Assembly: GCF_011745625.1 (NCBI RefSeq)
Contig: NW_027191460.1
Location: 124,001 to 188,000, forward strand
Direction: 5' to 3'
DNA length: 64,000 nucleotides
From: Cladosporium halotolerans
Lineage: Eukaryota
Positions 36,521 through 46,170 of the stretch are shown here, piece after piece. Positions within the stretch are counted from its first letter, which is position 1, and each line of letters starts with the position of its first letter. The translations under genes and the position numbers were made by a program. The notes beneath the pieces are model-generated. The model worked only from the letters and a program-made list of their open reading frames with translations. It did no database searches and had not been told where the DNA came from.

Positions 36521-38917
36521 CTACTTAGGCGGGCTCTTTTTGTAAGCAGGCTGCTTCGGGCCATAGTGCTTGTAGCCCGGGCGGCCCTTGTACTTATCGT
36601 TGCCCTTGCCCTTACCGTGGCCGCCCTTGCCACCGTGACCCTTACCGGTCTCCTCCTTTTCGCCGTCAGCCGACGCGCGGCTGAGACCCAGGCACTCGGC
36701 CATGTGGTAGAAGACGTCGATGTTGTCGTAAACACCGCCAAACAGCTCCTGGCAGGGACCCTGGGCGAAGACCGGGACGTCGGTCAGCGAGTGAACGCCG
36801 GACGAGGAGTCGGTCGGCAGGGTGCCGTTGACGATGAAGCCGTTGGGGTTGTCCTCCGGGTTGACGAAGTAGTCGTCCTCGTCGAAGCCCGTGACGTTGG
36901 TAACGGGCGAGCGCGGGCCGTCGCGGTGCACGCGGTAGTTCTCGCGGACGTCGGGGTGGGCGCCGAAGCCTTGGGCGAGGGTGTAGCGCGGGTCCCAGTT
37001 GGCGGGGAAGAAGGAGTCGGCGTAGCGCAGGTTGCCGCCGCGCGTGTATTGGCTCTCGCCGGACTGCTCGTAGATGCCGACGGCGCGGCGCTTGGAGCGG
37101 TCGTCGGTCTGCGCGTCGGCGTACTGGGTGTCGTAGCTGCCGAAGACGTCGAAGCCGTGGCCGTGGTCGGCAGTGACCACCACGAGGGTGTTCTCGAGTT
37201 CGCCGAGCTCCTTGAGGTGCTCGAGGGAGGCCTTGATGGTGTCGTCGAGCTCGAGGAGTTCGCCGAGGGCGCGGTCGTAGTCGAGGGCGTGCATCTGCTT
37301 GTCGATGGAGGCGGCCTCGGACATGAGGAACCAGCCCTTGTCGCCGTCAGCCTTGGCGCGGGTGTCGAGGATGTCGATGGCCTTGAGGGTCATCTCCTTC
37401 AGGCCGGGCTGGTCGAGACCGTCGCTACCGCGGCAGTCGGGGGAGTTCTCGGTGCCGACGAGGTTGTCGGTGTAGACGTTCCTGTCGAGCCACTTCTCCA
37501 TGTTGCTGGTGGAGAAGATGCCAAGGTGGCGGTCAGAGGCAGAGGACTCCTGGAGCTCAGTGTTGTTGGACACCAAAGTGTAACCTTCCTCGCTGAAGAC
37601 GTTGTAGTAGTTCAGGTTCTGGTAGGTCTCGCCGCCATCCTCAGGGTCGCAGAAGTTCTCAGCACCACCTGTTGTGAATTAGCGTGGGGTTTCCTAAAAT
37701 TCATGATGATCTGATCTTACCGCCGAAGATGACGTCGTAGCCGGGCCACTCGGTCCAGGTGTAGTTGACGATACCGTGGATGAAGGAGTCGATGACCGCG
37801 CCGTAGTCGCCACGGTCACGAGTGTGGGCGGTGAAAGCACCAGGCGTGGCATCGGCGATGAAGGCAGTCGAGACAATACCGACCTTGCCACCGAGGAGAC
37901 GCACGAACATCTCGAGGATGGACTCGAATTTGGGGTCATCGAAGGAATCCTCGGAAGAGTCGGCGTAGACACCGAGGGCGTTGACACTGGACTTGTGACC
38001 AGAGTACAGAGCAGTTGCAGAGTTGGCGGAGTCAGTGATGTACGAGTCAATGGAGTGGGTCATCTGGTGGCCGAGCTACAATTGGTTGTCAGAGGCATTC
38101 TTGATCAAGACTTTTTATCTTGCTGTGCTTACCACAGGGAACTTGTCCATGGCCATCTTCGACAGATAACGACCGTTCTTGGTCTCGTGGGCGATCAGGC
38201 GGGCAGCGGTGATCATGTTGGTGGTCATGCCGTCACCGATGTACAGAAGAACGTTCTTGGTCTTACGGACCTCGGACAGTTCCTTGACGGTCCAGTAGGC
38301 GGTGGTGTTGGTGCCGTTGTAGCTGAGGACGGCCTCGTACTCACCGGGCTCGAAGAGAGCAACACGGCGGTAGGCCTTGGAGGCGACGTTGACGAGGGAA
38401 GGAGTGTCGGCATCCTCGGCGAACAGGTCCTCGTACCTGAGAGATGAAGTCAGTTGCTTGCTCGGGTGAGGTCAACGCCAATCGATTGAACGAACCAGGT
38501 GAAGTTCCACGTCTCAAGCTCGGGCTCCTCGACGTCGAAGAACTCGGCAACCGGAACGGCCTCTTCGCCGACCTTGCCGACGGTCAGAGAGAAGTCCTCA
38601 TCGGGGACACCTTTAAGCTTAAATTAGCCGCCGCTCTCAGCTCAGCAGTGGTCGACGATAGCTGTCTGGAGCTACGGAAGCAGCTCCAGCGCCCATCGAT
38701 TGGGGTTACACGCACCGTCAGTCGCCTCGGATCCGTTGACCGGGGCGTGGATCTCCAGACGGATGTCGAAGTACTGGCCGGCCAGGAAGTCCTGCGCGTC
38801 AGGCGGCAGAATGCATCCCAGAGTCGGGCAGGTACCGAGACGCTGGAAGGTCTGGGCGGAGACAACAGCGGCAAGGCTAGCAGCGAGAGCTGCAGAAGAC
38901 AGTCTGAAGGCCACCAT
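36521..38917 (-). CDS. Secreted alkaline phosphatase, multi-exon
   Basis: Signal peptide MVAFRLSSAALAASLAAVVSAQ; 'LYIGDGM', active-site 'ITDSANSATA', 'ADATP', 'FLMSEAASIDKQMH', 'VVTADHGH', 'VHSLTDV'. Confidence 0.92.
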
Positions 38918-39396
38918 GATTGCTTCCTATTGGGGGGAGACGAGTGGCACAGGGTGTAGCACCTTGATGAAGAAATGGACGAAACTGGAAGCTGTACGGC
39001 TCTTTATAGACTCAAGATCAGCCCTCAGCTCGCCGGGTCGAGCTGCAAGGCACCGGGCGAGGTCCAGCAGGTTGGCCACGGCGATCGCACCCAATGCCCG
39101 TGGTCGCGGCGTGCAAAACAATACAACGGCGCAGCCACATCGTCAACCCGGCGGGACAAGCTTCTTGCAAAGCAATGAGAGGCTTGGCCTGCAGAACCGC
39201 GTGCGAGGCTGCGGGCATCGGATGGGCTGCTTCGTGAGCGACCTACCGCTTTGGGGGGCAGAGCCACCGTCTAGCCATAGTCTAAGGATGAGCAGCTTCT
39301 TGGGCGCGATGCCAGCCAAGACGCCAGCCAGGCCCTGCAGTCCCGCGAAGCATCGCAACCCTGAAGGCCTGAGGCCGCCACCGGCGGGGCGACACC

Positions 39397-39595
39397 CACG
39401 TGCCGGCGCAGGCGCAAGCCATTGGGGAGCTGCCGCAGGGATCGCCCCGCCGTGCTCGCCTGTACGCCGGGGGACAGCGGCTGCGCGCATCATCTCGCTT
39501 CTGACTCTCCAAGCCGTCTTTTATACTCCGCCCGCGGAATATGGTGAGAATGTCACTGACCAAAGCACCATCTCCGACTCGCCTTCCACCACGTG
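39397..39595 (-). promoter_or_regulatory. Two Pho4/NUC-1-type E-boxes upstream of alkaline phosphatase
   Basis: CACGTG at 39397-39402 (GCACGTGGG on the gene strand) and 39590-39595 (GCACGTGGT). Confidence 0.6.
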
Positions 39596-40333
39596 CGTTT
39601 GGCCGATCGATCTGCGCCTGGGCATGCTTTCGCTTTCTGTCGTCCAACGTGCGAGAGTGTTGGCAATAACTCATGCCAAATAACGCCGCTGACGGGAAGC
39701 TGGAAGTCTGCATGCAGTGACCGTCTTCTTGGCCCACTCCTGTGAAGCCAGCTGCCACGCATCCAGGTCTCTTGTCGGCTGGTCGCGTCTGCGTCTGCCC
39801 TTTCGACGACCAGCATGTGAGGCTGCGACGGCCATGCATCAATATGCCCTGACTGTCATTTAAGATTTGATTGCAGGTGCCGGCAGTGCTTCACCTCAGA
39901 GCATGCCGGCAATCTCCACTTGTGATCCGCGCTCCAGCGTCTGTGAAGGCGATCTCCAGACGATCCACCCGTCGGCGGTTGAACGACTGGGGACTGTCAG
40001 CTGCGGGCGAGGTGCGAGAATTGCATGAGACACACGGACAATCAAATAGCATTCACATGTCAAGTGAATGCTCCTCGAAAGCAGCATGGCTAATCGCATC
40101 AATCAAGCCGTGATTTTTACCCTGTAGACCTGCCTTCGTCATCCTTACAGCGGGGCAGCCATTCCCCAAGAGGCCCTTCAAGCCGCCGCTATCGAACTTT
40201 TCTCGCCTACATCGGCGGAAATCATCCCGACCCTGCTCGCGTGCACACAACTGCTGTTCTTCAGCAATACTTCTCTTGCTTAGCCACACATATCCTGCAA
40301 AGACTTGGCACCCTCGTATCCCTACCGCCCAAC

Positions 40334-42514
40334 ATGTCGGGACCCGTCAAGCGCACCGCGACCGCGACCGCCGACGCCGACGCCGCGAAACCCAACAACC
40401 CGCTGCAATCCAACTTCAACGCCGACGACTCCTCGAGCATCGACGAAGACGAGCGCTACCTGGTAAGATGAGTCGGGAGCTAGGGCGCACGAGCGCACCA
40501 GACAACAAAGATACCAAGCACATCGGCAATCCCACCTTCGGCGCATATCAGTGAGTACGAGATGGCATCAAGTGTAAAAACCAAAAACGTATAAGTCATG
40601 GCACGCGGGTGCCCGCAGACACACTCCGTTGCGAGCGCTTCCTTGCGACCCTGTCCCTTCGACGGACAGAGGCAAGGGGGCAAGCCGGGGGAACATGCTG
40701 CGGGCTGAGATCAAACCGCTTTTATGTTGAACTTGAACGCATTCGTATGCGCGGAAGGAGATGCTATGACTGATATCTAGAGCGATGCTCCTTATCCTCC
40801 CCTCTGTTTGAGACGGTAGATGCTAACGCCTAGAAGCGCGCCCTCGGATACAAGCAGGTATGTTGTGGCACTTCTTGACGTATCCGAGTAGATCGCTAAC
40901 CAATGCCAGTCGCTGCACCGCCAATGGAAGTTCTTTGAGAGCTTTGCCGCAAGCTTCGGTTTGTCTCGACCAGTCATAGCATAAGACAGCTTACTGACTC
41001 TGATAGCCGCCCTCTACTCTGTCGGTGGTATTCGTACGACCTTCACCATCGGTGTACAAGCAGGAGGACCTGCCGCTTACTGGTAATTCACCAGCCACAC
41101 GATGCTGCGACAAAGGCATACTAACAGTCACAGGTCGAGCTATGTCGTCACCTGTGTTTTTGTCATGATCACCGCAGCCGTGCTTGCAGAGATCTGTTCT
41201 GCACTCCCTGCAGCTGGCTCCATCTACTTCTGGGCTGCCGAAGCTGGTGGCACAAAGTACGGCAGGCTGTTCGGCTTCATCGTCGCGTGGTGGGCCACGA
41301 CCGCTTGGACAACCTTCGTCGCCAGCTTGTCCCAAGCCACTGCCAACTTCCTGCTCTCCGAAATCAGTGTCTTCAGACTCGCATTCTCCACGGACGTCAA
41401 TGACATCCACTTCCGTGCCGTCCAATGGATCGTCTCGGAGGTCATCCTCTTCCTGGGTATCGGAATGAACTACTTCGACCCCAAGATCTACCGCTGGATC
41501 TTCCGCATCGCGACCTACCTGATCCTCCTCGACTTCGCGCTGAACATCATCTGGCTCCCCATCGGCGTCTCCAAGACCTACGGCTTCCAGACCGCCGAGT
41601 ACGTCTTCACGCAAACCTACAATGAAACCGGCGCCCCTCCCGTCTGGAACTGGATGCTCTCCTACTACGTCACAGCCGGCATCCTCGTCGGCTTCGAAGC
41701 CTCCGGCCACATCTCGGAGGAGACGCAAAACGCCCAGACGACCGCCGCGCGCGGCATCTTCTGGTCCGCCGGCGCCTCCGCCCTCATCGGCTTCCCCGTC
41801 GTCATCCTCTTCCTCTTCTGCCTGCCCGACCTCAGCGTCCTCGACGCCCTCTACGAAGCCGGCACGCCCCAGCCCTTCCTGCACATCTACGATATGGCCC
41901 TCGGCCGCGGCGGCCACGTCTTCATGAACGTCATCTGCATCCTCGGCCTGCTCTTCAACCTCACCATCGCCGGCGTCGCTTCCAGCCGCCTCATCTGGGC
42001 CGTCGCCCGCGACGGCGTCCTGCCCTTCAGCGGCTGGATCAGCCAGGTGTCGGGCAAAAAGGAGCCCCGCAACGCCATCATCGTCATGCACGCCTTTAGC
42101 GCCCTCCTCCTCTGCACCATCCTCGCGTCGCCCGTCGCCTTCCCCTCCCTCGTCTCCGCCGCCGGCGTCCCGACCATCACCTCCTACGCCCTCATCGCTT
42201 TCGCCCGCTGCTTCATCACGCCGCACGAGTTCAAGCACGCCGCGTGGTCGCTGGGCCGGTGGTCCCGCCCGCTGGCGTTTGTCACTTTCGTCTGGAATGC
42301 GTTTTTGGCCGCCGTGCTGTTCAGCCCGCTGTACTTCCCCGTCACGGCCGAGGGCTTCAATTACTCGCCGGTGATTTTTGGCGCCGTCACGATTTTTGCC
42401 CTCGTCACGTGGTGGGTTACGCCCGAGGAGAAGTGGTTGCCGAACGCGCGGTTGGGGAAGGTGCATACGCTTGATGAGGGGTTTGTGCCTAGGGAGAGGA
42501 ACGAGGCGTCGTAG
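40334..42514 (+). CDS. THI9: APC-family permease, Thi9-like probable thiamine/thiamine-precursor transporter, 5 exons
   Basis: Exons 40334-40462, 40834-40857, 40910-40958, 41007-41082 and 41134-42514 give '..DERYL|KRALGYKQ|SLHRQWKFFESFAASF|..GGPAAYW|SSYVV..LAEICSALPAAGSIYFWA..GFEASGHISEET..SRLIWAVARDG'. Substrate is inferred from the TPP riboswitch in intron 1. Confidence 0.85.
40595..40770 (+). ncRNA. TPP (thiamine pyrophosphate) riboswitch aptamer in intron 1 of the permease
   Basis: P1 GTCATGGCA(40595)/TGCTATGAC(40770); P2 GCGG(40605)/CCGC(40716); GGGTG; P3 GCCCGCAG(40611)/CTGCGGGC(40698) with a long extension; CTGAGA at 40705-40710; P4/P5 GAACTTGAAC-GCATTCGTATGC-GCGGAAGGA. Confidence 0.92.
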
Positions 42515-42630
42515 TGGGAGGGTTGTGGCGTGGTGGTGGTGGTGGAGGTGGTGGTGGTGGTGAGTCTGAGCTGAGCTGAGGTTGGTTGGCGTGGTGACGT
42601 CGTCGTCATCACGTGCTCGCAAAAGAACAG

Positions 42631-42653
42631 AAAAAAAAAAAAAAACACAAAAA
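42631..42653 (-). terminator. Oligo-T Pol III terminator (T5, then T15)
   Basis: + strand A5 at 42649-42653 and A15 at 42631-42645, immediately after the 3' strand of the terminal stem. Confidence 0.6.
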
Positions 42654-42880
42654 CACCAGCAGGGTTCGAACCCCCAACAGCCCGAGCAAAAGAACCACCC
42701 CGCCTCGCTCGGGGGGTGTCAAGAAAACCGCTCTCTCACAGCAAGTTTTACTTTTGGTGGGGCGCGCCAGCCGAACAGTCCTCGGTACCTGGCGAGCGGG
42801 CCTGTACTGCATACCGTGACCCGGTCCCGCGCGGCGTACCACTGCGCCACGCAGGACTGAACGCCTGCTCGTGTGCTGGT
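42649..42880 (-). ncRNA. Unassigned structured ~230-nt RNA polymerase III-type RNA gene
   Basis: Minus strand: TATATAAA ~30 nt upstream, A box TGGCGCAGTGG (42849-42839), B box GGTTCGAACCC (42672-42662), terminal stem ACCAGCA/TGCTGGT, five internal hairpins and T5 + T15 terminators. Confidence 0.7.
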
Positions 42881-42903
42881 TGTGTCATTTGGGGTTGCGC
42901 GTG

Positions 42904-42911
42904 TTTATATA
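42904..42911 (-). promoter_or_regulatory. TATA box of the putative Pol III RNA
   Basis: TATATAAA on the minus strand, first T 31 nt upstream of the predicted 5' end (42880). Confidence 0.6.
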
Positions 42912-43695
42912 GGTGAAGCGGGGGACGTGGGGGGAGTGAGGTGAGGTTAGGTTAGGATAGGTGGCATAGGGGTGGGGTTGGCTAGATGTTGTACAGTACA
43001 CGTATAGATGCATTTTCTTATTGTCATCCGCTGTTTGCTGCTCTAGGGAGTGTTTGCAGTTGCCGTTAGGGGGTGCTGGTATAGGGTGTGAAAGTGAGGT
43101 GAAGTGAAGTGGCGGAAGTCACGTGACAGGGGGTATCACTTGTGGGCTTGCTACGTGAGGGAGACGCGCGACGGTTCCTACGAGTCATGTGACAAACCGC
43201 GTAACGTGTCGGCGATTTGAGGAGCACAAGTGATGCGTGGCTAGAATATTGACGTGTGTCACATGATCATAGAGTGAAAACGCGAATGTGCGCGGAAGTC
43301 TTGCTAAGGTGAAAGGGGAGCACGTGAGTTTGTACGTCTGTATGCCATGAATTCTCTCGTTAGAAACACCAACCATTCCGTACAGACTTTTCTTGTGCCG
43401 CTTTCGACGATGCTGGGAATCGTGTCAAAGCGCTGCAAACGTATCGGTATTAACAAAAACGCCATGGGGGTATCTATGCTTATGCCGCTGGTGTGGCCGA
43501 ATGCTGCCAAATAGCAAAACGCGACAAGGAAAGAAGAGTGGAGAGAGTACAACAGGCCGAGCAAGGGGACTCTCCCATGCAGAAAAAGAAAGGAAGAAGC
43601 AAAAGAAAACATCCACGCCACCCAGTTCTTGACGTCTAACCCCCTGTGCTCCCCGGTCTTGGACGTCAGAATCTTCCGGCCACATATCTAACAGC

Positions 43696-46170
43696 TCAGC
43701 GTGGTGTCCTGGCAAGCTCGCCCACGACTCGTTTCAGAGCCTTGAACTGGCCGTCCATCTCCATGATCGTGTCGGTTTGCATAGCAACCGCGCCGTCATA
43801 CTCAGTCTTAGCCTTTTCGAGTTCGCTGTCGAGATGCTGTTTGAGGTTCGCTTGGATCGCAGTTTCCATCCCCATGCGAAGTTGCTCGAGGTTGTTGTCG
43901 AATGCGTCGACGAAGCCCTTGAGTTCCGCGATCTGCTTGTTTGAAGAGGTCTTATCCTGGAGCTGCTGTTCACCAGCCTTCGCCTGTTCCGCACGCAGCG
44001 CGGCCTGGGCATGCTCCAAGGCTTGAACCCTGCTGTTCAGCGAACGCACTGCGGCTTCAAAGTCTTTCGCCGCGGGGTACATTTTGCTCATCTGGTCGAC
44101 CATGGCTTTGACGACTTCTTCGGTGGTCAGGTTGTCAAAGCGTTGTCTCAGTTGCTGGATGTGACCGATGATGCCGTTGATCTGGTTTTGGAGTATCAGA
44201 AGCTCTTGGGATGAAGGCCCTGGGGGACCATTGTTTGCTGTGTTGAGAGGGCTGCCATTTGCTGGCGAACTGATTCCGTTTGTTTGCACAGACTGCATGG
44301 GCATGTTCGATCTCGGATTGTGGCTGGTCGATGTTTGCGGAGGCAGCGATCGGGTCTGCCATGCGCCAGCTGGTGGCGAAACTGCATGGCTGGTCGAAGC
44401 AGACTTTTCCAGAGCCTGGACTGTCGAAGACAAGCTCGCGAAATTTGACTGCAGACCCTCCAGTGTTTTTGCCAGTGAGCCTACCTGTGCACTTACCCAC
44501 GATTGCAAGTCCCTAAGGTCCTTCGCAGCCTCTTCCTTATTGGCAAGCCCTCCGATTTTCTTGGCCAGGGAGTCCAGCTCTTCTTTCTTGACAATGGTTG
44601 TGTTCGCCGAGTCTGCCCAAGATTGCAGATCTGTAGTTTTCTTTCGCAGCTGGTCCAGTTCTTTACTGCAGTCGAGCTCTTCAACTTTCTTATCGAGCTT
44701 CGTTTGAAGTTCGCCCGCGGCTTTCATGAACTCCCCCGACAGCACCTGGTCCCTCTGGTCTGAATCTGCTTCAATATCGGCTTTGAGGTTTTCAATCGAG
44801 TCATTGAACAAAGTCTCTGTGATGAACTTGGAATGAAAGTCGCTCCGGGCATCAGCAGATCTGCTGTCTTTCATCTGCTGGATGTCTGCTTGAATGTCCA
44901 TGATGGATTTTTCAAGCTGTACGGCACCGGCAACAGCAGGTTGGGTCGTATTGACATCTGTAATCGTCTGGAGTTTTCTGGTGATCAGCTCTTGACTTTC
45001 CAGGCGCTTCGAAAGGGATCCTTTATGGTCTCCTGAAGCCTCGTTCTGGACCTTATAGAGGTCTATACGACAGCTGTCGACCTGGTCACTAATGACATCA
45101 ACGCATCCCCTGAGGTCGGAGATGTCTGCGGTGATAGAATCAAAGTTCTGGGCGATGTTGGCTTTTTCGGTGACCTGAAGTGTTTTGAGCTTCGAAACAT
45201 CCGCCTTGGTCACGCTGAGGTCACGCGCGTGACCCTCGATCTTGACGTGATCATCTTGGGTAAGCTTTGCTAAAGCCTCAAGTTTCTCAATTCGAGGCTG
45301 GAGCTTCCTTTCCACATGCTCAGTTGAGGTTTGTTCCGCGCGCGTTAACTGCTCCTTCAAAGCCGTCGTATCGGATTTTGTCGATTGCTGCATGGAAGAT
45401 ATCTGCGCCTTCCGCGTCGCACAATCCTCTCTGATTTCTCTCAGAGCAGTTTGAAGCTCTACGATGGTGGCTTGCTGCTTATCAAAGCGAGCCATCAGGC
45501 CGCTGTGATTGGTCTGCAGTGCATCGAACTCGTCACGTGACACGCTGTCTGGGTGAGCATCAGTGCTTATAGTCAAGTTTACTATTGCCTGGCACAGAGC
45601 CTGAGTAATCCCAGACTGCGCGTTCTCTTTATCCTTCAGTTCACCCGCGAGGCTGGCAACCTTCTCCTCGGCTTCATCCCTTGCCTTACTGACCCGTTTT
45701 CGAATGTCGGGGAATCTGTCGAAGTTGCTGTTCATGTTTTTGAACTCAATTTCTGCAGTTTCAGACTGCTCCTTTGCCAGGTTGCGAGATACATGGAGGG
45801 CTGCTTCAGCAGTAAGCTGGGAGACCATGCTTTTCACAGCATCTAGTAAAGAGTTCGCCAGAGACTCTTCTACACGCGCCTCCTGCGGGGCTTGCATGAT
45901 GGCGGTCTGGACATTCGCTTGGTGAGGTTGAGGTGTTGATCGAGAACTTGCGACATCTTGGTAAATACTCCCGTCGGTGCTGCCTGGAGAGCGAATGGTT
46001 AGAGTGGTCCTCCTACGAGGGTCTGCATTTGAATTGACAATGTTGGCATTTCCAATCGAGGCTTTTCGCTGATCGTCAATGCCGTTCGCCGCTGGTGAGC
46101 CTTTCGAGACCTTCCTCTGGGCATTCGACCCCTCTGGGGAACGGCTTTGTTTTCTTTTCGCAGGGTTCAT
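43696..46170 (-). CDS. Large coiled-coil protein of unknown function (824 aa; possible extra 5' exon(s) from ATG 46686)
   Basis: Uninterrupted ORF with heptad-rich helices and 'LRQRFDNLTTEEVVKAMVDQMSKMYP'. A GTAAGT donor at ~46399 and a CTAAC..AAG acceptor just before 46170 suggest upstream exons. Confidence 0.75.
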   Translation of the reverse strand: MNPAKRKQSRSPEGSNAQRKVSKGSPAANGIDDQRKASIGNANIVNSNADPRRRTTLTIRSPGSTDGSIYQDVASSRSTPQPHQANVQTAIMQAPQEARVEESLANSLLDAVKSMVSQLTAEAALHVSRNLAKEQSETAEIEFKNMNSNFDRFPDIRKRVSKARDEAEEKVASLAGELKDKENAQSGITQALCQAIVNLTISTDAHPDSVSRDEFDALQTNHSGLMARFDKQQATIVELQTALREIREDCATRKAQISSMQQSTKSDTTALKEQLTRAEQTSTEHVERKLQPRIEKLEALAKLTQDDHVKIEGHARDLSVTKADVSKLKTLQVTEKANIAQNFDSITADISDLRGCVDVISDQVDSCRIDLYKVQNEASGDHKGSLSKRLESQELITRKLQTITDVNTTQPAVAGAVQLEKSIMDIQADIQQMKDSRSADARSDFHSKFITETLFNDSIENLKADIEADSDQRDQVLSGEFMKAAGELQTKLDKKVEELDCSKELDQLRKKTTDLQSWADSANTTIVKKEELDSLAKKIGGLANKEEAAKDLRDLQSWVSAQVGSLAKTLEGLQSNFASLSSTVQALEKSASTSHAVSPPAGAWQTRSLPPQTSTSHNPRSNMPMQSVQTNGISSPANGSPLNTANNGPPGPSSQELLILQNQINGIIGHIQQLRQRFDNLTTEEVVKAMVDQMSKMYPAAKDFEAAVRSLNSRVQALEHAQAALRAEQAKAGEQQLQDKTSSNKQIAELKGFVDAFDNNLEQLRMGMETAIQANLKQHLDSELEKAKTEYDGAVAMQTDTIMEMDGQFKALKRVVGELARTPR

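Follow-up and report, generated by a model that had tools for sequence, protein, structure and literature searches.

A probable TPP riboswitch associated with two competing 5' splice sites in an APC-family permease gene of Cladosporium halotolerans

Five gene groups of fungal riboswitches, THI9 among them, were defined by Moldovan et al. 2018, as reported by Donovan et al. 2018 (PMC5997356). THI9-group riboswitches were reported in Taphrinomycotina, Pezizomycotina and Basidiomycetes, and THI9 orthologues in Pezizomycotina carry riboswitches (PMC5997356). A survey of 2024 lists a 'TPPsw-AA' group and places all groups except SUGAR in Ascomycota (PMC11683625), whereas Mukherjee et al. 2018 described amino-acid-transporter riboswitches as absent in Ascomycota (PMC5882874). 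We analysed a candidate thiamine pyrophosphate (TPP) riboswitch in the first intron of a permease gene of the fungus Cladosporium halotolerans. The stretch of DNA under analysis, hereafter the window, comprises 64,000 nucleotides of contig NW_027191460.1 (positions 124,001 to 188,000; assembly GCF_011745625.1). The gene occupies positions 40334-42514 of the window and, like all of its features described below, is encoded on the forward strand. An earlier, sequence-only reading of the window had proposed that the intron carries a TPP riboswitch acting on two competing 5' splice sites.

Our preferred interpretation is that this APC-family permease gene probably contains, in its first intron and within the coding region, a TPP riboswitch of the fungal THI9/amino-acid-transporter group that controls the choice of donor. 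As far as the sequence and the RNA contigs go, the interpretation given in the sequence-only reading is supported. Novelty is low, since both the association of TPP riboswitches with this permease family and the layout of the intron had already been published as predictions (Donovan et al. 2018, citing Moldovan et al. 2018; Mukherjee et al. 2018; the 2024 survey). The window adds a further member, together with transcript evidence for it and an explicit masking helix. Like the THI9/TPPsw-AA group, the locus has a gene for an APC-type 'amino acid permease', with homologues named Thi9, whose intron holds a TPP-type aptamer; it differs in that transcript evidence is available for two non-productive isoforms, whereas the group has been predicted only. 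In the supplement of Donovan et al. 2018, a THI9 riboswitch is given for Blastobotrys adeninivorans only, riboswitches of S. nodorum and X. heveae that were not placed are labelled TPN1, and no direct link to a homologue of the window permease was seen (PMC5997356). The THI9/amino-acid-transporter group awaits experimental characterisation, according to PMC5997356 and PMC8786325. In the literature searched, in which Moldovan et al. 2018 was covered through citing papers only, we found no experimental study of the group and no transcript-level evidence for Type III splicing (described below) or for splicing control in this group.

The intron also resembles described modes of splicing control. 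In the 'Type III' arrangement of Mukherjee et al. 2018, an internal intron of 200-400 nucleotides carries two donors with an in-frame stop codon between them, a mode that 'has not been experimentally observed' (PMC5882874). The window gene shares the internal intron (374 nucleotides), the two donors, the intervening stop codon and the truncated peptide that results when the shorter intron is removed. It differs in that its second donor is seen in use in RNA and in that its closest named relatives are Ascomycota. As long as no TPP is present, nucleotides of P4-P5 keep a 5' splice site blocked in NMT1 and THI4 of Neurospora crassa (Cheah et al. 2007, via PMC3597705). The window intron likewise has P4-P5 complementary to its proximal donor, and in both cases the product of the proximal site is non-productive; in NMT1, TPP unmasks that site. 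However, the NMT1 intron lies in the 5' untranslated region and represses through upstream open reading frames, whereas the window intron interrupts the coding region and its retained piece carries a premature stop codon. NCU01977/DUR31 (Li and Breaker 2013; Donovan et al. 2018) is comparable in that it too is a transporter gene, its aptamer too lies in an intron of the coding region, and its alternative products contain stop codons. It belongs to another transporter family, its intron is far longer and has several alternative donors, and it relies on alpha-alpha' pairing through the 3' strand of P1, features that were not seen for the window gene.

The aptamer and its conservation

The aptamer spans 40594-40771 and consists of P1, P2, a long P3 arm, the CUGAGA motif and the P4/P5 arm, as delimited by the fold, by covariation and by a model built from orthologues. 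In the minimum free energy (MFE) fold of 40590-40775, P1 has 10 base pairs (40594-40603 with 40762-40771), P2 pairs GCGG with CCGC (40605-40608 with 40716-40719), and P3 pairs GCCCGCAG with CUGCGGGC (40611-40618 with 40698-40705) and carries a long extension, the whole arm covering 40611-40705. The CUGAGA core, already recognised in the sequence-only reading, is sited in the J3/2 junction at 40706-40711. P4 (CUU/AAG, 40732-40734 with 40755-40757) and P5 (CGCAU/AUGCG, 40738-40742 with 40747-40751) form the other arm. Helices P1 to P5 surround the conserved cores in this fold (CUGAGA; ACC...GAAC.UGA...GCG..GGA), and the limits of 40595-40770 that had been proposed for a full aptamer were right to within 1 nucleotide. 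The fold energy is -76.3 kcal/mol (z = -3.79), and none of 200 shuffled sequences was equally stable.

For comparison, we used 80 loci encoding relatives of the permease, taken from metagenome contigs. A strict core pattern was detected in 25 of them, every time 328-560 nucleotides upstream of the large exon. The 5' strand of P1/P2 was present in all 21 core-pattern loci that were not cut by a contig end; its spacing from CUGAGA varies between 47 and 106 nucleotides across loci and is 98 nucleotides in the window. An alignment of 17 distinct elements revealed helix covariation around invariant core positions. Base pairing was found in 88.8% of the cells, compared with 28-49% when the partners were slid. 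Changes on both sides of a pair were counted in 24 cells, a number reached by none of 500 shuffles, and eight pairs had changed on both sides, in P1, P3 and P5 but mostly in P3 and P5 (reached by 11 of 500 shuffles). P2 and P4 were uninformative in this respect because they are invariant among the 17 elements.

A covariance model was built from these 17 elements, which include the window sequence, so that its match in the window is one by construction; it retrieved a single element there (40592-40773, 113.8 bits). Across the comparison set, the model detected the element in 59 of the 80 loci, always on the gene strand and 193-546 nucleotides before the large exon. When only loci with at least 700 nucleotides of upstream sequence were counted, the element was found in 47 of 57. 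By band of protein identity to the window, it was present in 8/8 (85-100%), 18/18 (70-84%), 6/6 (60-69%), 2/9 (50-59%) and 13/16 loci (39-49%). The aptamer was not found in L036, L037, L039, L042, L046, L047, L051, L054, L055 and L061, despite at least 700 nucleotides upstream, and seven of these ten loci encode proteins with 50-59% identity to that of the window. Such loci represent either lineage-specific loss or a paralogue without the riboswitch.

Since the fold, the matches in orthologues, the covariation and the orthologue-built model agree, we conclude that the element is an aptamer of the eukaryotic TPP kind that lies below the curated cut-off of Rfam, and that it presumably binds TPP. 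A match to ceN108, a Caenorhabditis C/D small nucleolar RNA, was retrieved at 40541-40604 on the opposite strand (17.2 bits where the cut-off is 50; E = 1.1) and was taken as chance.

Splice forms of intron 1 and the masking helix

Exon 1 ends at GTAAGA (40463-40468), a weak donor whose last position departs from GTRAGT. It is the only donor that yields the full frame of 551 amino acids. Further downstream, a proximal donor, GTGAGT (40551-40556), would leave an 88-nucleotide piece of the intron in the transcript. An in-frame TGA (40469-40471) lies in the segment that is kept either when the proximal donor is used or when the intron is retained. Both donors and the length of the retained piece agree with the sequence-only reading, the distal donor having been placed at the same position by direct reading and by script. 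Scripted translation likewise bore out truncation by this TGA after 45 residues and showed that, as had been claimed, the frame of an ATG at 40468 is not that of the downstream exons under either of the acceptors considered below.

The branch-point-like GCTAAC is present where it had been reported (40822-40827). In contrast, the 3' splice site at 40833 and the intron length of 371 nucleotides given in the same reading had to be revised. A tandem acceptor, TAG/AAG, is found in the 40822-40836 region, and both RNA joints and homologue junctions point to use of the AG at 40835-40836. The joints in the RNA contigs lead to 40837, and at the exon 1/2 junction each of the 20 aligned homologues lacks one residue or more relative to the model with the 40833 acceptor. 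As the acceptor AG is 40835-40836, intron 1 (40463-40836) has 374 nucleotides and the protein has 551 amino acids. The acceptor is NAGNAG-like (40830-40837); both AGs preserve the frame, and their products differ by one lysine codon. At the corresponding place, orthologues L001 and L003 have AAG as their sole acceptor.

Contigs of four public runs (X1, X2, X3 and X13) were placed on 40100-42700. Only X13 is recorded as RNA. The contigs of X1-X3 are taken to be RNA-derived because introns 2-4 are missing from them. Similarity to the window is 95-99%, and the contigs as a whole are therefore attributed to relatives. Splicing of introns 3 and 4 is evident in each of the four runs; the joint of intron 2 is seen in X1-X3 and lies within a composite joint in X13. 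Retention of intron 1 is shown by X2 (record 11) and X3 (record 17), where the contig runs unbroken over ~40240-40854 while later introns are skipped. In X1, a joint from 40550 to 40837 (GT..AG, 286 nucleotides skipped) reveals use of the proximal donor. Record 9 of X13 joins 40550 to 40907 with 18 letters between them, which match 40837-40854 at all positions but one; this match leads us to read the record as proximal donor, exon 2 and exon 3. Both the 40551 donor in use (X1 and X13) and the retained intron (X2 and X3) were therefore observed, although the sequence-only reading had named their absence from RNA as a ground for its own rejection. The relatives differ from the window within intron 1 at 40473, 40475, 40507, 40581-40583, 40679 and 40818, none of which falls in a splice site or in the aptamer core; 40679 is part of the P3 extension. 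Record 10 of X13 (42314-42426) has a loose end of ~53 unlike letters before 42314, which points to another allele or relative, a more divergent one, in the sample.

The arrangement of aptamer, two donors and intervening stop codon was compared in twelve lineages: the window, L001, L003, L012, L015, L017, L025, L033, L043, L058, L060 and L062. Near-duplicates (L002, L006, L007, L021, L049, L014, L048 and L059) were left out, as were L024, which has 92 nucleotides of upstream sequence only, and L026, which is described below; the exon 1 end of L012 was assigned by the donor motif alone. The arrangement was found in the window and in the set as a whole (12/12). In every lineage, exon 1 ends at a non-consensus donor (GTAAGA, GTGAGG, GTGAGA or GTAGGG) and is followed by a GT[AG]AGT proximal donor, 61-106 nucleotides past the distal one and 34-82 nucleotides 5' of P1. 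The in-frame stop codon lies 2-15 codons past the end of exon 1, and in nine of the twelve lineages the retained piece shifts the frame as well.

The proximal donor of the window is embedded in a box (40536-40569) complementary to the aptamer strand 40723-40758, which comprises J2/4, P4 and P5. The duplex has a predicted energy of -30.1 kcal/mol, compared with -16.7 +/- 3.4 for shuffled sequences, none of 1000 of which reached it, and it is matched by only 4 of 1713 other 35-nucleotide windows of the 64 kb. Within 40300-41200, the box is the best pairing site for the aptamer strand. Without ligand, the MFE structure of 40530-40775 is the masked form (-89.0, compared with -83.0 for the aptamer form), and five of the six nucleotides of the proximal donor have a pairing probability of at least 0.95. 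Complementarity between P4/P5 and the proximal donor is clear in six of the twelve lineages, namely the window, L001, L003, L012, L025 and L033, where the masking helix goes clearly beyond shuffles (<=8/300). A Fisher combination over nine lineages gave p = 2.5e-5, a rough value because the lineages share ancestry.

These elements suggest a switch of the following kind. When TPP is low, the strand 40723-40758, the 3' half of the aptamer, would pair with 40536-40569 and hide the strong proximal donor at 40551. The spliceosome would then take the weak distal donor at 40463 and the acceptor at 40836, giving the messenger RNA for the 551-amino-acid permease. At high TPP, the aptamer would close through P1, P4 and P5, the masking helix would be lost, and the proximal donor would be used or the intron kept. 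Both products of this second state would keep the TGA at 40469-40471, and for that reason only a 45-residue peptide could be made from them. The element would thus act as an NMT1-type OFF switch, here within coding sequence. Because the alternative products are truncated, it would turn off a probable importer of thiamine, or of a precursor, when the cofactor is plentiful.

Counter-evidence and rival explanations

Several observations weigh against control of donor choice by TPP, and they are gathered here with the explanations that they could favour. The Rfam TPP model (RF00059), a search with which had been advised in the sequence-only reading, was run and missed its gathering score: there was no gathering-level match in the whole 64-kb window, and a permissive local scan reached 25.2 bits against a gathering score of 54.3 (E = 0.012). 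This local alignment covers only 40672-40776 and begins inside P3. None of the 20 orthologous loci scanned reached the gathering score either, and the expectation that orthologues with a short P3 would pass the threshold failed (0/20). Matches at the E-value level were obtained in all eight loci scanned for them, of which four gave full-length alignments (44.5-47.7 bits, E ~1e-6) and the other four scored 27.8-35.5 bits. The gathering score is an operational cut-off, and Donovan et al. 2018 reported that of the three known N. crassa riboswitches only two passed the threshold of Infernal (PMC5997356).

With an element below the Rfam cut-off, the aptamer could be a conserved relic that is blind to TPP, and the isoforms could be ordinary splicing noise at a long, structured intron. 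An in-silico study suggested that function might have been lost in the thi9 and NUC riboswitches, which are less conserved (PMC8786325), and experimental validation of THI9/amino-acid-transporter riboswitches was not found in the literature searched. We nevertheless regard a relic as very unlikely. The core is invariant in the 17 elements while P3 and P5 change compensatorily, and the element is kept at the same place in 59 of the 80 loci, down to 39% protein identity. The design of two donors and a stop codon is conserved too, and the deficit in the Rfam score sits at the P3a stem, which is absent here, and at the P3 insertion, outside the ligand-binding core. The RF00059 gathering threshold misses the whole group (the window and 0/20 loci), whereas the model built from the group detects 59/80. 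This may explain the conflicting statements on amino-acid-transporter riboswitches in Ascomycota.

Other points concern the transcripts and the masking helix. The productive 40462|40837 junction is present in no contig of the four runs, although contigs keep common forms only and cannot show absence. These runs do not connect the isoforms with thiamine. The modelled aptamer conformer keeps the proximal donor in a weak local hairpin and does not fully expose it. The masking helix is not beyond shuffles in L015, L017, L043, L058, L060 and L062 (16-108/300). A scan of a further locus, L026 (2300-2690), retrieved neither the motif at the end of exon 1 nor a second consensus donor before P1, and this orthologue may depart from the two-donor design. 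Its aptamer is a good one (116.3 bits).

Such a pattern would be compatible with a genuine riboswitch whose main action is to block removal of the whole intron, TPP binding impairing, for example, the distal donor, the branch point or the acceptor, and use of the proximal donor being a by-product. Contigs that retain intron 1 and lack introns 2-4 are the assembled form in two of the four runs (X2 and X3), the retained piece also occurs in X1, and the helix is non-significant in half of the lineages (6/12). Li and Breaker likewise described control of NCU01977 as independent of any single alternative donor (PMC3597705). We consider this explanation unlikely, since a consensus-type second donor is kept in all twelve lineages and is used in the RNA of two runs, and the masking duplex of the window is far beyond chance. 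Moreover, the duplexes of the aptamer 3' half with the distal-donor region (-16.0 kcal/mol) and with the branch/acceptor region (-17.1) are both at background level (~-17).

The first of these energies also bears on the 'Type II' action of NCU01977/DUR31, in which the 3' strand of P1 pairs over a long range near the distal donor and joins the splice sites when TPP is absent. The shared features set out at the beginning (a transporter gene, an aptamer in a coding-region intron, alternative products with stop codons) would fit such an action, which is nonetheless highly improbable here. The intron has 374 nucleotides, compared with 650-900 for Type II; the window protein is an APC permease and not a member of the urea-transporter family; and the best duplex of the aptamer 3' half with the distal donor is background. 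In this analysis, no conserved, covarying complement of the P1 3' strand was seen near the distal donor. The window thus lacks the Type II combination of long intron, urea-transporter family and alpha-alpha' pairing.

Control of donor choice by TPP remains our preferred reading for the window gene. More tentatively, the RNA contigs may show for the first time, at the level of transcripts, the Type III mode and splicing control in the THI9/amino-acid-transporter group. The group itself may comprise two sorts of lineage, those in which P4/P5 masks the proximal donor, as in NMT1, and those without the helix that use another route, such as intron retention. If so, the expression platform would have been rewired repeatedly around an unchanged aptamer.

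The permease gene and its product

The gene has five exons (40334-42514), and scripted translation gives 551 amino acids with no internal stop codon. Exon 1 (40334-40462) contributes 43 codons, from the ATG at 40334 to an end reading ...DEDERYL; this end is conserved as D.DE.YL in an N-terminal alignment with 20 homologues. Exon 2 (40837-40857) is a 21-nucleotide exon encoding RALGYKQ, placed by RNA contigs, homologues and frame. Exons 3 (40910-40958) and 4 (41007-41082) were delimited by contig joints and frame, with joints of the latter in each of the four runs. Most of the APC-family permease is encoded by exon 5 (41134-42514), which ends with a stop codon at 42512-42514. Introns 2-4 are 48-52 nucleotides long and have branch sites of the CTAAC or CTGAC type.

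Exon 5 alone matches the Pfam profiles AA_permease_2 (E = 9.4e-45, profile positions 36-426 of 427) and AA_permease (E = 1.6e-16), and the AA_permease_2 match assigns the APC/amino-acid permease fold to the window protein. The closest named homologues in the protein search, with ~80% identity, belong to Dothideomycetes such as Cryoendolithus, Saxophila and Hortaea. Across all homologues, identity goes up to 93%.

The permease may import thiamine or a precursor of it. This reading is drawn from the riboswitch, from the names of homologues and from the precedent of Thi9 of Schizosaccharomyces pombe, a thiamine carrier that resembles amino-acid transporters (PMC5997356). The source name 'Thiamine transporter thi9' was carried by 3 of the best 120 matches with exon 5 of the window as the query and by 12 of the best 120 in a second protein search, for which a Taphrinomycotina homologue (P0087) was the query. 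The homologues so named share 54-59% identity with the respective query. S. pombe Thi9 itself was not among the best 120 matches of either search, and the protein atlas returned only generic names of permeases. The label 'Thi9-like' used in the sequence-only reading would accordingly stand for source names of homologues together with the THI9/amino-acid group of the literature.

The locus marks out this 'amino acid permease' subfamily, in Dothideomycetes that inhabit rock or are associated with plants, as probable thiamine-related importers. It also adds an RNA-backed example to a group of fungal riboswitches that has been repeatedly predicted, with exact coordinates for work with reporters or reverse transcription-polymerase chain reaction. 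The general picture of riboswitch control in eukaryotes is unchanged.

A scan of 38000-45000 for transfer RNA genes found none, notwithstanding a T-loop-like string near 42660. Immediately 3' of the stop codon, a (GGT)n-like run occupies 42527-42562, and an A-run of ~15 follows in the 3' flank (42636-42650); 42520-42700 was skipped as repeats when the RNA contigs were placed.

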